Origin: a bacterium
GTDB taxonomy: Bacteria; Patescibacteriota; Saccharimonadia; Saccharimonadales; SZUA-47
Assembly (NCBI GenBank): GCA_009923445.1
Contig: RFTN01000004.1
Location: forward strand, 2,438 to 66,437
Length of the DNA: 64,000 nucleotides
Reading direction: 5' to 3'
Position numbers and translations under genes: made by a program. Under the pieces are notes generated by a model. It had not been told where the DNA came from and did no database searches. It saw nothing but the letters and a program-made list of their open reading frames with translations. Below are positions 55,573 to 61,909 of the stretch, in pieces (the first letter of the stretch is position 1; every line of letters starts with the position of its first letter).

Positions 55573-55610
55573 TTAGGCAAAAAACTGTATAAACAACCAG
55601 GTGGAAGGGC
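55573..55610. repeat. degraded copy R1 of the DUF2177 gene 3' end
   Basis: 'ttaggcaaaaaactgtataaacaaccaggtggaagggc' compared with 61472-61509 gives about 33/38 identical. Confidence 0.5.
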
Positions 55611-55636
55611 ACCGGGTTCTGGTCTCATCGTTCGTA

Positions 55637-55664
55637 GGTTTAAATTCCTTATCCTCAGCCAAAT
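55637..55664 (+). repeat. tRNA-3'-end-like motif, copy a
   Basis: 'ggtttaaattccttatcctcagccaaat' has a T-loop-like segment followed by '...CCNCAGCCAAAT'. Confidence 0.5.
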
Positions 55665-55773
55665 TGATTATTCAGCTAATACAACCAAACCTCATATCTG
55701 GAAGTTGAAAAGTTCGAATACCCTTATCTCCTAGGAAAAGTTACTCATTCCTGACTCAAAACCAAAAAACCCG

Positions 55774-55802
55774 TTGACATAAAGTTAATCTTTAGTTAAA
55801 CT
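55774..55802 (+). promoter_or_regulatory. putative promoter of the Phd/RelE operon (leaderless transcript predicted)
   Basis: TTGACA (55774-55779), a 17-nt spacer, then TAAACT (55797-55802). The ATG at 55809 is 7 nt downstream of the -10. The spacer contains the near-palindrome 'aagttaatctttagttaaactt'. Confidence 0.55.
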
Positions 55803-55808
55803 TAGTGC

Positions 55809-56036
55809 ATGAGTACAAATAAATCTGTTAGCCTTAAAGAACTACGCGAACAGTTCCCTAAGTATATTGAAGCTATTTCTAAGGGACAAAGCTTTACGGT
55901 AGTTAAACGATCAAAACCTATTTTTCAGTTAAACCCAATCAGTGACGAAGGCGATTGGCAAACTATTGCTGATTTTACTACCATCGAAGATAATGGCGTT
56001 AAAGCTGAAGATGTACTGGCAGTACTAGAGGCATAA
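55809..56036 (+). CDS. type II antitoxin, Phd/YefM family
   Basis: 75 aa. 'VSLKELREQFPKYIEAISKGQSFTVVKRSKPIF' is typical of the Phd/YefM N-terminal fold. Confidence 0.75.
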   Translation: MSTNKSVSLKELREQFPKYIEAISKGQSFTVVKRSKPIFQLNPISDEGDWQTIADFTTIEDNGVKAEDVLAVLEA

Positions 56037-56042
56037 TTTATT

Positions 56043-56288
56043 ATGGCTGATAAGATAAAAAAGCTTTTAGCCAAACTTAAATCTCAAGAGCGTGAATTAG
56101 TTAAGTTGTTGATATTGCGAGTCAAATTAGACGATACCCTAGGGCTAGATATTAAGCAACTAAAAGGTCATTCTGATCTTTTTAGAGTACGAAAGGGAAG
56201 GTTAAGAATTGTATTTAGAAAAGATGCAAACAGCTTTTTAATTGTAAGAATAGACCGCCGGAACGAAAAAACTTACAAAGATCTTTAA
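56043..56288 (+). CDS. type II toxin, RelE/ParE superfamily
   Basis: 81 aa. 'LKGHSDLFRVRKGRLRIVFRKDANSFLIVRIDRRNEKTY' matches the RelE/ParE core pattern. It lies 7 nt after the antitoxin gene. Confidence 0.75.
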   Translation: MADKIKKLLAKLKSQERELVKLLILRVKLDDTLGLDIKQLKGHSDLFRVRKGRLRIVFRKDANSFLIVRIDRRNEKTYKDL

Positions 56289-56307
56289 AACAAGTTCAGC
56301 CAGGATT

Positions 56308-56335
56308 TATATATATATATATATATATATATATA
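56308..56335. repeat. (TA)14 dinucleotide microsatellite
   Basis: Uninterrupted 'ta' x14 immediately after the toxin gene. Confidence 0.95.
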
Positions 56336-58982: not shown

Positions 58983-59265
58983 AGCTCGATAGTATCAGTA
59001 ATGATGGGTAGGTTCCAAGTATTGTTGTAAATGCTAAGCAGCTACTACTAGCGGTGCTAGTAGTGCACCTGAAGGCGCAACACATACCGGTACGCACGAT
59101 CGCAGGGATTAGATACCAAGAAGCCACTATCGACATTGCCGATACGTATAGCCAATCCCAACTATTAAGTCTAAAGCGATTAATATTTTTCATGACAGTC
59201 ATCGCAACAATGTCATTACTGTTGCCATAGCATATACCCAACAAAAAAGTAGCCTAGTTTAGTAG

Positions 59266-59397
59266 GCCCTGGCCTTAGGCAAAAAACTTAATAAACAACC
59301 AAGTGGCAAGGCTACATACACCAGCTGTTAGCACTGTGCCCCATAGCAAATCAACCACGGTTACTTTTATTGGCCAGTCTTTATATACGGCTTGCGA
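59266..59397 (-). repeat. copy R2: displaced 3'-terminal fragment of the DUF2177 gene
   Basis: 132 bp with about 120 identities to 61463-61594. The reverse strand still reads '...KDWPIKVTVVDLLWGTVLTAGVCSLATWLFIKFFA*'. Homology ends abruptly at 59397. Confidence 0.9.
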
Positions 59398-59503
59398 ATT
59401 ATTTTTGATTACATTAATGATCACGTAGATATACGGATGTGAGTTACTGACTTGTATTCTAATTTAAAGGTGCTACTATCAAAGTATTAACAAGGAGAAA
59501 CTC

Positions 59504-59698
59504 ATGAGCGAATTATTATTAAATAGTAATGAAAATTTAGTTCTAGATACAGGCCTTGAAACTGAGATATTAAAAACAGAAAATAGTATAAGAACATTAG
59601 GAAAAGTAACGGTGTTAGAATTGCTTGCAGAACCAATGAATGCAATAACTCCAGAAATGACATATCAGAGCGCTTGGACGAACAGGGAAGATAGGTAA
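59504..59698 (+). CDS. candidate RiPP (graspetide-type) precursor peptide
   Basis: 64 aa with a strong RBS ('aaggaga' 6 nt upstream). The leader is acidic. The C-terminal 'AITPEMTYQSAWTNREDR' is rich in Thr/Ser and Glu/Asp. It is the first gene of a cassette that ends with an ATP-grasp ligase. Confidence 0.55.
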   Translation: MSELLLNSNENLVLDTGLETEILKTENSIRTLGKVTVLELLAEPMNAITPEMTYQSAWTNREDR

Positions 59699-59724
59699 TT
59701 ACTACTTCTGCACTGGGAAGCTAA

Positions 59725-60336
59725 GTGAAATACGCATACCCCAGACATAGGAGCCTTATTCTTAAATGGCTAAAAGAAGATCAGGCTCGGCTGACAGCAC
59801 TTGGTAAAAAACTAAACGGGTTGTATGATTTGGACTCAAAGATCCAAGCCATTAAACCCGTTGCAAAAGCCTGCCAGTTAAGAGCTGTAGAAGTCCTTGA
59901 TTTGCTTAATGAAATACATGAGCCAATCAAGACCAACATTGGATTAGACGGATCGGAGGCCATTATTATACTTACACTCCACTCAAACGTTACTTATATG
60001 GAGAAGGTTCTACACATATATGAGGAATGTATAGAAAAAGACCCATCTAGTATTGCATCCGATTCTGTCGCATCGCTTGTTGATAGGGTGGGATTAGTAA
60101 AAACGGGCTCACAGAAACTAGGTACGATATGGCTTGAGGACGAAAATGGCAGTAGTTTCATACCGCCAATACAGGAAATAGAGTCAGTAAATAAGAGAAG
60201 AATCAGATACAGGCTGGGACCTATTGTGAACCGTGTGACAGGTGATAATACAATAGAAGCCATAAAAAAATTACAAAAACCCGTCCCTCAAGATATTTAC
60301 GATTTGAATTTTGTTTTCATGAATATGGAGCTGTAG
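59725..60336 (+). CDS. hypothetical protein (203 aa) between precursor and ATP-grasp ligase
   Basis: GTG start, same strand, 4-nt gap to the ligase gene. No motif recognised. Confidence 0.5.
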   Translation: MKYAYPRHRSLILKWLKEDQARLTALGKKLNGLYDLDSKIQAIKPVAKACQLRAVEVLDLLNEIHEPIKTNIGLDGSEAIIILTLHSNVTYMEKVLHIYEECIEKDPSSIASDSVASLVDRVGLVKTGSQKLGTIWLEDENGSSFIPPIQEIESVNKRRIRYRLGPIVNRVTGDNTIEAIKKLQKPVPQDIYDLNFVFMNMEL

Positions 60337-60340
60337 GACT

Positions 60341-61333
60341 ATGAGTACGAAGGGTAATATTTTAATAGCTTCTTCAGATCATTCAAAAGAAGAGTATGTA
60401 CCCGTTGCGCAGCAACTTAGCAGTGCTGGCTATAATCCTGTTATATACAAAGTGGACAAAGTTCTTGACTCAGATGAGTCCTTTACGTTGAATATTACTA
60501 ATAATGGTGAATTATCAATATTCTACGAAGGCGTAGATATATCTCCAAAAAATATTCTTGCAAGCTGGTATAGAAAAGTTTCAGACTTTAATATTAGAGA
60601 TAAAGCATCAGATAAGGCGGCTCTATTATTGCTTCAAGATGAAGTAGACTCTTTACATCAATCAATATGGCCCCTGTACGATGAGAGTATATGGCTGAAT
60701 GCCCCAGAAAACATATATAAGGCCGCTCGCAAATTAGGTCAATTGCTTGTGGCTAAAAAGGCAGGATTTAACATACCCGAAACAATCGTAACTAGCGATT
60801 GGGGAGCTATAAAAACACGCTTTTTTGAAGATTTATCTTATAAAAACATAATAGTAAAGATGATGCGTGGGGTCATTGTTAAAGATAATACAGAAATGGC
60901 CCTACCGACAACAATTCTAGACAGTAATAAGGTAAATTTAATATCAGAAAGAGCGGTGTCATTCCCCGGCCTATACCAGGAATATATTAACAAGTATCGT
61001 GAATGGAGAGTGACAGTGGTGGGGGAGGAGGTATTCCCGGTGTCTATTTATACAGACAAAGACGCCAAGGATGATTGGCGCAAACACCAAATGACCTCAA
61101 GCGTTACATTTAAAAGTGAGCGCATAGATTGCGATATATCAGAAAAATGTATTAAGTTCCTTGATGATATAAATTTGAAATTTGGTGCATTTGATTTTGT
61201 AGAAAAAACTAGCGGTGAATTTGTTTTTTTAGAATGTAACGCAAATGGCCAGTACTATGCACTAGAAGAAAGATTCAATCTTCCAATATCTAGTGCCATA
61301 ACTAGTGAGCTAATAAAAATAGCCAAAGCTTAG
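60341..61333 (+). CDS. ATP-grasp peptide maturase (MdnC/MvdD-like)
   Basis: It is colinear with microviridin-type ligases as I recall them: 'ILIASSD...', 'ASWYRK', 'KLGQLLVAKKAGFNIPETIVTS', 'EWRVTVVGEEVF', 'DDWRK', 'GAFDFVEKTSGEFVFLECNANGQY' and 'LPISSAI'. Confidence 0.8.
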   Translation: MSTKGNILIASSDHSKEEYVPVAQQLSSAGYNPVIYKVDKVLDSDESFTLNITNNGELSIFYEGVDISPKNILASWYRKVSDFNIRDKASDKAALLLLQDEVDSLHQSIWPLYDESIWLNAPENIYKAARKLGQLLVAKKAGFNIPETIVTSDWGAIKTRFFEDLSYKNIIVKMMRGVIVKDNTEMALPTTILDSNKVNLISERAVSFPGLYQEYINKYREWRVTVVGEEVFPVSIYTDKDAKDDWRKHQMTSSVTFKSERIDCDISEKCIKFLDDINLKFGAFDFVEKTSGEFVFLECNANGQYYALEERFNLPISSAITSELIKIAKA

Positions 61334-61471
61334 AAGATTGCTACTATTCAGTCAAAAACCACAGGATTATTTTTTACGCCGGTATAGTTAAAGTTTTTTA
61401 ACGGCACTGAGATTAATCCATCGTCAACTTTTTAAGACATAAAGAAGTTGCGTTAGTATATTGCCCTGGCC

Positions 61472-61909
61472 TTAGGCAAAGAACTTAATAAACAACCAGG
61501 TGGCAAGGCTACATACACCGGCCGTTAGCACTGTGCCCCACAGCAAATCAACCGCGGTTACTTTTATGGGCCAATCTTTAAACACTGCTTGCGATGTTAA
61601 ATCAAAGGTACTGTAGGCAACTAGGCCAAATAGCGCCCCGCGTGTGGCAGCATACATAACCGACTTGTCGGCAACAGCTGGCTGCACCACAAACACCACC
61701 AACCCCACAATATATATGACATAAAACAGCCCAGCGGCCAGTAAGTTAGGCTTGTCTGTCATGAGGTGGCCAATGTTACTTTTATAAAACTTTGGCGCAA
61801 CCTTAACCAACCAAACACTATCTAGTGCCAATAAACTTGCAAAACTTAAGCCAAATAATTTTATAAATTCCATACGTATAAGTGTAGGGTAGTGTTTATG
61901 CTTCAGCAA
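61472..61909 (-). CDS. DUF2177-type membrane protein
   Basis: 'LALDSVWL...FY...IGHLM...LFYVIYIVGLVVF...GALFGLVAYSTFDLT...WP...DLLWGT' matches my recollection of DUF2177. The likely start is Met13 (61873). Its 3' end is the repeated att-like sequence. Confidence 0.7.
   Translation of the reverse strand: MLKHKHYPTLIRMEFIKLFGLSFASLLALDSVWLVKVAPKFYKSNIGHLMTDKPNLLAAGLFYVIYIVGLVVFVVQPAVADKSVMYAATRGALFGLVAYSTFDLTSQAVFKDWPIKVTAVDLLWGTVLTAGVCSLATWLFIKFFA

Follow-up and report, generated by a model that had tools for sequence, protein, structure and literature searches.

Nested copies of a DUF2177 gene end in an additive flexible genomic island of a Saccharibacteria chromosome

Cis-mobilizable elements (CIMEs) of the Streptococcus ICESt1/3 family are blocks of cargo between attachment (att) sites; they stand one after another at the 3′ end of fda, carry no recombination genes and are thought to be mobilised in trans by the integrase of a related element. 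Campbell-type insertion-duplication is a form of laboratory mutagenesis carried out in Streptococcus and Bacillus with circular plasmids. At the insertion site of the element e14, a diverged copy with conservative differences takes the place of the gene tail, and the original tail persists, displaced, as a pseudogene (PMC13626634), while serial integrase events leave a characteristic repeat anatomy of tRNA 3′ ends (bioRxiv 10.1101/2020.12.28.424599; PMC4898812). The locus described here lies in a 64,000-nucleotide (nt) stretch of contig RFTN01000004.1 (assembly GCA_009923445.1), hereafter termed the window, the closest genomes to which are Candidatus Saccharibacteria metagenome-assembled genomes (MAGs). 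It contains three nested copies of the 3′ end of a gene for a DUF2177 membrane protein, and the DNA between them differs from strain to strain. The locus can be described as a tycheposon- or CIME-like accretion combined with an e14-like tail replacement, the new features being cassettes in which no recombinase gene is detectable, anchors at protein-gene ends and a host from the Candidate Phyla Radiation (CPR).

The live DUF2177 gene (Table 1) was matched to Pfam PF09945 with an E value of 1e-41. Its open reading frame (ORF) can be extended upstream, but translation probably begins with the ATG at 61873, because the resulting product of 133 amino acids (aa) is on record in other assemblies and the 145-aa product is not. 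A repeat search of the window confirmed the direct repeat of 132 nt between copies 1 and 2, at 92% identity, and a 38-nt family (55573–55610, 59275–59312 and 61472–61509, 87% identity to the reference copy) of which copy 3 is the short, distant member; both had been picked out at these coordinates by an earlier, sequence-only reading of the window. The 38-mer consensus found no match in 100 shuffles of the window. In a self-BLAST the repeats were recovered, and allowing one gap lengthened the alignment of copies 1 and 2 to 156 nt at 87.8% (59243–59397 versus 61441–61594), so that weak similarity of copy 1 to copy 2 runs on to 61441. Copy 2 still encodes the C-terminal 40 residues and the stop codon in frame, as had been claimed, with two substitutions (F to Y and A to V), and it is called as part of a 62-aa ORF with a DUF2177 match in other assemblies. 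Copy 3 encodes the last 11–12 residues, ending in STWLFIQFFA and the stop codon. The repeat and the cassette also share a 24-nt match in inverted orientation, which was at chance level by estimate. The contents of the two intervals were also as first described, with an ATP-grasp cassette between copies 1 and 2, and a Phd/RelE pair, an HTH-Fic gene, small ORFs and TspO between copies 2 and 3.

A repeat that was duplicated or collapsed during assembly could give a similar picture, and other assemblies do break nearby at a (TA)n tract. Such an artefact was nevertheless excluded for all practical purposes, because the copies differ at 8% of positions and four independent assemblies agree: three or more samples that were assembled separately have this arrangement, among them GCA_010028955.1, GCA_010027835.1 and Logan SRR8075950. 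In addition, the flank of each copy has an orthologue of its own in other strains. Exact-protein look-ups of the window genes returned only near-identical strains with the same arrangement, and scaffold_37 of ENA ERZ28577356 carries identical proteins from elsewhere in the window.

Relatives were collected by a metagenome scan and by context look-ups, and they fall into lineages that are ~ 88–91% identical in shared DNA. In two of them (L019 and L051) the sortase gene and DUF2177 are followed directly by the flank that stands beyond copy 2 in the window, and the ATP-grasp cassette is absent; L019 10280–10584 corresponds to window 59397–59091 at 86.7% identity. Beyond this flank lie an intact MFS transporter of 529 aa, TspO and unrelated transporters. 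In two others (L048 and L049) the 198-aa gene follows DUF2177 after 59 nt, and the entire 5.9 kb corresponding to window 55611–61471 is missing, which represents the fully empty state. Here L048 10365–11096 corresponds to window 55610–54879 at 88.9%, so that copy 3 with its flank is orthologous to a junction that is still live in that strain. A further contig (P0001) has the gene order sortase, DUF2177, TspO. Empty, single-cassette and alternative states were thus all found, and the notion that every relative would carry the same three copies without polymorphism is contradicted by L019 and L048.

The three flank types start at the stop codon or 9 nt past it. The A-type flank, with the 198-aa gene, is found at copy 3 and in L048, and forms the live junction in L048 and L049; the B-type flank, with MFS and TspO, is found at copy 2 and in L019, and forms the live junction in L019 and L051; the C-type flank, the ATP-grasp cassette, is found at copy 1 and forms the live junction in the window. 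In eight lineages, the sequence that begins at the DUF2177 stop codon is a different and unrelated one each time. On the strength of the states found in relatives, the three copies are best described as fossil junctions, each of which would record a former neighbour of the gene's 3′ end, and serial insertion is supported. Such genome comparisons show different DNA blocks apparently joined, repeatedly, at the stop-codon ends of conserved genes, each duplicating the gene tail. The serial insertion at a gene 3′ end that was proposed earlier therefore stands as far as nesting order and alternative states go, while the site-specific enzymology that came with it is an interpretation, weighed below. 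Each single difference between strains may have arisen by insertion in one lineage or by loss of the DNA between repeats in the other. No extra DUF2177 tails were found in other lineages, and the 198-aa gene, sought as a sign of a shared copy 3, was absent from L019-type genomes. Species-representative genomes were set aside as evidence of occupancy, having only the DUF2177 gene in common and no synteny.

It had been read from the sequence that the copies become more degraded with distance from the gene. This is wrong for copy 2. Comparison of copy 1 with copy 2 gave 11 differences over the 123 coding nt, nine of them synonymous third-position changes and two conservative replacements, in a segment with 28 synonymous and 92 non-synonymous sites (P ~ 3e-4 under neutral decay). 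Because nine of the 11 differences are synonymous, copy 2 does not look like a decaying duplicate; it would be either a piece of another functional allele or a sequence that is still under selection or expressed as an ORF of 49–62 aa. Its distance from the live allele is about the same (11–14 of 123 nt) for the window, for L019 and for L048. The live 402-nt gene is itself a block mosaic of the three lineages with at least three breakpoints (Fisher p ~ 1e-5 for the first breakpoint): informative sites are almost all window-specific at nt 12–130, L019-specific at nt 154–195 and L048-specific at nt 210–264, and are mixed past nt 280. This mosaic indicates that homologous recombination between co-existing Saccharibacteria strains is frequent inside the gene, and the synonymous pattern consequently has two possible sources, in that it may reflect an element-borne replacement tail, as in e14/icd, or a later allelic overwriting of the live gene. 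The earlier idea that each incoming element brings a replacement 3′ end is compatible with the synonymous differences, and at the same time inseparable from later allelic recombination in a mosaic gene.

One interpretation of the locus dispenses with cassette mobility altogether. The locus could be an ancestral composite with duplicated ends, produced for example by tandem duplications, that was later trimmed between repeats and had its live gene overwritten. The segments shared with L019 (B-type flank and TspO) and with L048 (copy 3 and the 198-aa gene) are at the ordinary genome-wide identity of 87–89% and could be ancestral. Trimming is also evident: the MFS gene of the window was cut to its last 49 codons by a plain 1.5-kb deletion, and the remnant at 59105–59254 corresponds to residues 481–529 of the 529-aa protein intact in L019 and L051 (76% identity, E 1e-17). 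The tail of the L019 gene resembles copy 1 to codon 32 and copy 2 from codon 38 into the flank, which is the pattern that a deletion between copies would leave, although it rests on one site. An ancestral composite is nevertheless unlikely. The G+C content of the ATP-grasp cassette (36.6%) and of the block at 55611–58585 (37.5%) is clearly lower than that of the core (42.3%), the cassette has no close relative in other lineages, eight unrelated flanks in eight lineages require gain as well as loss, and tandem duplication leaves unexplained the 3′-end fragments of a non-local tRNA that are described next.

The sequence-only reading had described the DUF2177 site alone, but the same anatomy recurs at the end of the 198-aa gene, downstream of the L048 sortase gene and at tRNA-Leu. 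Self-comparison of 44–64 kb revealed partial copies of the 3′ end and downstream sequence of the 198-aa gene on either side of the AAA-ATPase block and of the carotenoid cluster. That at 51.8 kb runs on into an L048-type downstream flank and is, by the same token, also a displaced original junction. In L048, downstream of the sortase gene, three copies of a 53–76-nt segment (4943–4995, 8055–8230 and 9161–9336), two of which extend to 176 nt at 94%, separate blocks with TspO (diverged and inverted), HD-domain, 2′-5′ RNA ligase and DUF2726 genes, and the middle copy (s2) carries an L019-type flank.

At the far end of the region, tRNA-Leu, the only tRNA gene found by ARAGORN, has an exact copy of its end nearby, a 23-nt unit running from T-loop to CCA at 46885–46907, 133 nt downstream of the gene and inside a structured element termed R1. 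The 23-nt unit is tandemly reiterated in L048 and conserved in L058 and L059. Five further fragments resembling tRNA 3′ ends (55638–55665, 56348–56375, 56880–56899, 58040–58059 and 58474–58501) all lie on the plus strand with the form GAATCC.TC ATCCCCR G CCA, in the same register of T-loop, T-stem, acceptor, G and CCA, and delimit the Phd/RelE, small-ORF, Fic and ORF58 units. No source for this second tail, which is Pro-like by its C1:G72 register, was found among the tRNAs of the fetched loci, and the fragments matched no Rfam family. The motif CCYYRGCCWW occurs 10 times against 2.2 expected, with seven occurrences on the plus strand in 55.6–61.5 kb; note, however, that it was derived from the very sites counted and that its match at the DUF2177 repeat edge covers only 8 nt, which makes it a lead and not evidence. 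In L058, an exact 43-nt duplicate of the tRNA-Leu 5′ half, up to the anticodon loop, was also observed (11966–12008 and 12151–12193); it sits upstream of the intact tRNA-Leu and is fused to a copy of the GCC-N3-GGC hairpin of R1.

The phenomenon is accordingly that of an additive flexible island with several gene-end anchors, rather than that of a single DUF2177-specific site. Across L013, L048 and L058 the conserved backbone consists of RecG, a 273-aa protein, an RsmD-like methyltransferase and tRNA-Leu, followed by a variable region that includes DUF2177 and then by HisRS, trigger factor, ClpP and RpoB. In the window, 2–46 kb holds housekeeping genes, and the variable region extends for 16 kb from tRNA-Leu to just before the sortase gene at 62653. 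The cassette content between tRNA-Leu or DUF2177 and the sortase gene differs among the window, L019, L048, L053 and L058, and, as in tycheposon-like islands, a tRNA gene adjoins the region and partial copies of its 3′ end lie inside. The variable region, with tRNA-Leu at 46.7 kb and the sortase gene at 62.6 kb as its limits, forms an additive flexible genomic island in this Saccharibacteria chromosome.

Set against described systems, the locus shares with e14 and phage 21 in E. coli icd (and icdC) an element at the 3′ end of a coding gene, a tail that is present twice, an intact gene, a displaced tail that is a pseudogene at the far end, and tails that differ mainly by synonymous or conservative changes. 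It differs in having three nested tails instead of two and cargo blocks of 2–4 kb instead of a prophage; moreover, e14 encodes its own integrase and excises upon SOS induction, whereas no integrase was detected here. With the tycheposon arrays and additive islands of Prochlorococcus and Alteromonas it shares seeding at a tRNA gene, partial target copies between cassettes, presence/absence differences between strains, newer arrivals pushing older ones inward, and a cargo of defence, toxin–antitoxin and metabolic genes. Those arrays, however, use partial tRNAs together with tyrosine or serine recombinases or fragments of them, none of which is detectable here, and the anchors of the present island are mostly protein-gene ends, several of them side by side, in a CPR host. 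The tandem disposition of cargo without recombination genes between att-like repeats, in the form of the three nested DUF2177 tails and the other series, resembles CIME accretion; the repeats are longer and more diverged than in CIMEs, and no element with a cognate integrase was found in the window, the relatives or the viral and plasmid collections. Integron arrays also consist of tandem, promoterless-looking cassettes in one orientation with short recurring sites and no recombinase inside the cassettes, but an IntI gene and attI are lacking, the DUF2177 copies contain no imperfect palindromes of the attC kind, and the recurring sites here are gene pieces or tRNA ends. A DDE transposon or insertion sequence fits poorly, as the repeats are direct, imperfect and 38–156 nt long, without matching terminal inverted repeats, and no transposase was found.

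The reading that we tentatively prefer, at somewhat less than even odds, is integrase-type accretion with an enzyme that has been lost or acts in trans. New DNA would be joined at the stop codon or up to 9 nt from it, as the comparisons suggest, duplicating the last 38–132 nt of the gene, which would stay intact while older junctions are pushed outward. The small cargo elements would integrate site-specifically through attachment sites that include a replacement gene end, as for e14 in icd/icdC, and successive integrations would yield a tandem array, as in tycheposon arrays or the accretion of CIMEs. The recombinase would be supplied in trans, or would since have been deleted from the streamlined genome, and frequent homologous recombination between strains would reshuffle alleles and delete or transfer cassettes through the repeats. 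Duplicates from T-loop to CCA are the classical footprint of tRNA-targeting integrases. This reading is favoured because the duplicates of that kind found here match the footprint and are too short for RecA, because the inward displacement of older elements by newer ones is known from other arrays, and because e14 in icd/icdC is a precedent for a replaced tail with conservative differences. Direct repeats that include the 3′ end of the target gene flank the inserts (132 nt at 92%, and 38 nt), as for integrative elements, and unoccupied sites of the attB kind are represented by L019 and L051, without the ATP-grasp cassette, and by L048 and L049, without the whole 5.9 kb.

Several results weigh against integrase-type accretion. 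Searches for Phage_integrase, Resolvase, Recombinase and transposase families gave no match in the two intervals or in any gene of the 64-kb window, and recombinase and transposase families gave none in the cassettes of five other haplotypes, including L019, L048, L053 and L058. The statement in the earlier reading that neither interval encodes a tyrosine, serine or DDE recombinase thus holds, and extends to the rest of the window and to relatives' cassettes; a 529-aa ORF beside the gene end in L019, considered as a large serine recombinase, proved to be the MFS transporter. The window, 60 fetched loci and the viral, plasmid and phage collections yielded no integrase-bearing element with the same att site, and the DUF2177 tail, the cassette and R1 were on no virus-like contig, plasmid or phage record searched, including IMG/VR. 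Copies 1 and 2 are identical over the first 8 nt at the 5′ edge and have longest exact runs of 17–20 nt, without a long identical core; the upstream edges of the DUF2177 copies differ (−123 versus −38), so that no single fixed crossover is evident; at least four anchor sequences lie within 16 kb, each of which would need a matching specificity; and the synonymous-biased differences are equally explicable by later allelic replacement of the live gene. Hallmark genes of island mobility (integrase, replication or packaging module) were likewise not detected in the window or in relatives' cassettes.

It could be that one of the unannotated proteins is a recombinase of a type not recognised by such searches, the candidates being the 203-, 64-, 182- and 198-aa proteins of the window and a 381-aa ORF of L048. 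None of these five has a match in Pfam, PHROGs, NCBIfam, PADLOC or PDB chain sequences, and a single-sequence AlphaFold2 model of the 203-aa protein had a predicted local distance difference test score (pLDDT) of 39, which is unusable for fold comparison. A cryptic enzyme is very improbable all the same, for no single one of these ORFs is common to different cassettes, the 203-aa ORF lies in a likely peptide-maturase operon, the 198- and 182-aa genes behave as anchors and not as cargo, and no serine- or tyrosine-recombinase motifs were seen on inspection. Where the sequence-only reading had offered a mobilising activity in trans, lost or of an unrecognised type, the first two are favoured. It had omitted a recombinase-free route through RecA and competence, which is still viable.

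This route is the main rival, and it is possible though less probable than integrase-type accretion. DNA of a related strain that carries a piece of a gene end together with foreign cargo would be taken up by natural transformation, circularised (or excised through existing repeats) and integrated by a single RecA crossover; such Campbell-type entry duplicates the homologous piece, and conserved gene ends and tRNA genes would become junctions simply as the only shared sequence in a hypervariable region. Like the present locus, Campbell-type integration places an insert between direct duplications, needs no site-specific enzyme and suits a host group that is naturally competent. The failure to find a recombinase in the window or in relatives' cassettes agrees with it, as do repeat lengths and edges that vary as random fragment ends would (38, 46, 53–76, 64, 117 and 132–176 nt), the recurrence of the pattern at several neighbouring conserved anchors, and the intense homologous recombination in the 402-nt gene (at least three blocks). 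The 132-, 117- and 176-nt duplications are long enough for RecA. Natural competence, with recombination of incoming DNA, has been shown experimentally in Saccharibacteria (PMC10633639), which also counts in its favour. Against it, the exact 23-nt repeats from T-loop to CCA are too short for a RecA crossover and fit integrase cores, and the 38-nt copy is too short as well. As DNA enters competent cells in the form of linear single strands, a double-stranded circle must be postulated as an intermediate, and without a circle the first duplication is unexplained. We know of no natural nested array built by insertion-duplication; the precedent is a laboratory outcome, that of insertion-duplication mutagenesis.

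A broader proposal, which we regard as doubtful, is that cassettes are captured and shuffled without any element-encoded recombinase, either by RecA insertion-duplication at gene ends or through folded single-stranded attachment sites. The candidate for a folded site is R1, an element of ~ 125–150 nt with a terminator hairpin in front of it and a tRNA-3′-like tail at its end. The 5′ arm of R1 is base-paired to the T-loop portion of this tail, as GACTTGA/TCAAGTC in the copy next to tRNA-Leu and as GATTCGA/TCGAATC in the other. R1 stands beside tRNA-Leu in all three lineages, with one extra copy inside the window island; a covariance model located three copies in L048 (16662–17131) and also found the element in the more distant lineages L058 (11742–11886) and L059. 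Compensatory changes were counted in 15 of 29 pairs across six sequences, and 95% of cells were paired, versus 32–42% with slid partners, with no shuffle reaching the observed values, in an alignment that was fitted to the model being tested. R1 had no Rfam match, and its core none in IMG/VR. Its role may be that of a small RNA, of an arm region for an integrase or of a recombination site that folds as a single strand. The R1 fold, in which the 5′ arm covaries with the type of tail, could mimic a tRNA-target duplex at which a host enzyme would recombine incoming single-stranded DNA, much as with integron attC sites and with CTX phage and XerCD.

The cargo of the island is diverse (Table 1). 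The ATP-grasp enzyme is related to MvdC/MvdD peptide maturases, below family cut-offs, and the 64-aa ORF upstream of it may be the precursor peptide of a likely graspetide cluster. Homologues of the enzyme are scattered over Saccharibacteria, Actinobacteria and Ktedonobacteria, the nearest outside the strain cluster being 64% identical and located on a 2-kb contig; a search for the donor context of the cassette found no homologue in IMG/VR, plasmids or phages. The HTH-Fic gene is bracketed by direct repeats of 46 nt (56854–56899 and 58014–58059, 93% identical). Both repeats encode W-[LP]-G-R-Q-[ND]-V-N-G-T-F-T-D-E-D on the minus strand and may be pieces of the 5′ region of a small gene. In a defence-system library the Fic protein resembles the candidate defence proteins PDC-S04/SoFic and the AAA ATPase resembles IetA; with such defence-like cargo, the island may double as a defence island. 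The Phd/RelE-like genes form a toxin–antitoxin pair flanked by two of the tRNA-3′-end-like fragments. The tract beside it is a (TA)14-like microsatellite at ~ 56308–56336, and the contigs of two NCBI MAGs end there or nearby, making it a recurrent assembly breakpoint. The carotenoid pathway is complete and lies in the variable island, an unusual cargo for CPR, and it is absent from L048 at this position. The 198-aa gene is a rare accessory gene, represented in only six protein clusters. The 182-aa ORF is another presence/absence difference, being present in L048 as 177 aa and replaced by ~ 90 nt in L019 and L051.

Table 1. Positions in the window of the gene-end copies, the structured element and the cargo of the island.
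Feature	Position	Strand	Remarks
Live DUF2177 membrane-protein gene	61472..61873	−	133 aa; ORF extendable to TTG at 61909
Copy 1	61463..61594	−	Last 123 nt of the gene and 9 nt downstream (GGCCAGGGC, gene orientation); then C-type flank
Copy 2	59266..59397	−	Displaced DUF2177 3′ end, frame and stop codon intact; then B-type flank
Copy 3	55573..55610	−	Last 38 nt of the DUF2177 gene; then 198-aa gene after 59 nt
198-aa gene	54917..55513	−	Rare accessory gene; anchor of second repeat series
198-aa gene 3′ end and downstream	54791..54941	−	Partial copies at 51819–51879 and 46956–47067
Displaced 198-aa gene end	51819..51879	−	64 nt, 80%; between AAA-ATPase block and carotenoid cluster
Copy of 198-aa downstream sequence	46956..47067	−	117 nt, 86%; tRNA-Leu-proximal end of carotenoid cluster
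Island boundary	46668..46910	+	tRNA-Leu 46668–46751, terminator hairpin, R1 46786–46910
R1, tRNA-Leu copy	46786..46910	+	Adjoins tRNA-Leu
R1, second copy	58351..58500	+	89 bits (covariance model); tail TCGAAT CCCTC ATCCCCG G CCA
ATP-grasp cassette	59398..61462	+	2.07 kb; absent from L019, L051, L048, L049
64-aa ORF	59504–59698		ATP-grasp cassette, upstream of enzyme
203-aa ORF	59725–60336		ATP-grasp cassette
330-aa ATP-grasp enzyme	60341–61333		Related to MvdC/MvdD peptide maturases
B-type flank with MFS remnant	59091..59265	+	Between copy 2 and TspO
TspO/MBR gene	58587..58982	−	87.6% nucleotide identity to L019/L051, same relative position
HTH-Fic unit	56854..58059	+	Gene 57036–57947, between 46-nt direct repeats
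Phd/RelE-like pair	55638..56375	+	Phd 55809–56036, RelE-like 56043–56288; (TA)n tract ~ 56308–56336
AAA ATPase	53185–54675		Resembles IetA (defence-system library)
Carotenoid cluster	46924–51784		Polyprenyl synthase, phytoene synthase, desaturase, lycopene cyclase, UbiA-type transferase
182-aa ORF	61944..62492	−	Between sortase gene and DUF2177; no family match in any library

In the CPR, or Patescibacteria, genomes are tiny and few mobile elements can be recognised in them, yet accessory genes vary from strain to strain, and how such genes are gained is poorly understood. The locus described here is a base-resolved record of stepwise gene gain, of which empty, intermediate and full states can be found in public metagenomes, and the genes gained comprise a toxin–antitoxin pair, Fic and AAA defence-like genes, a likely graspetide cluster and a carotenoid pathway. 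R1 is a candidate for a new RNA or a single-stranded DNA site. Saccharibacteria can be transformed in the laboratory, and the mechanism is therefore directly testable. If it is true that the cassettes move without a recombinase of their own, whether by host enzymes or by competence and homologous recombination at conserved gene ends, this would be a simple route to genome plasticity that is invisible to annotation pipelines.

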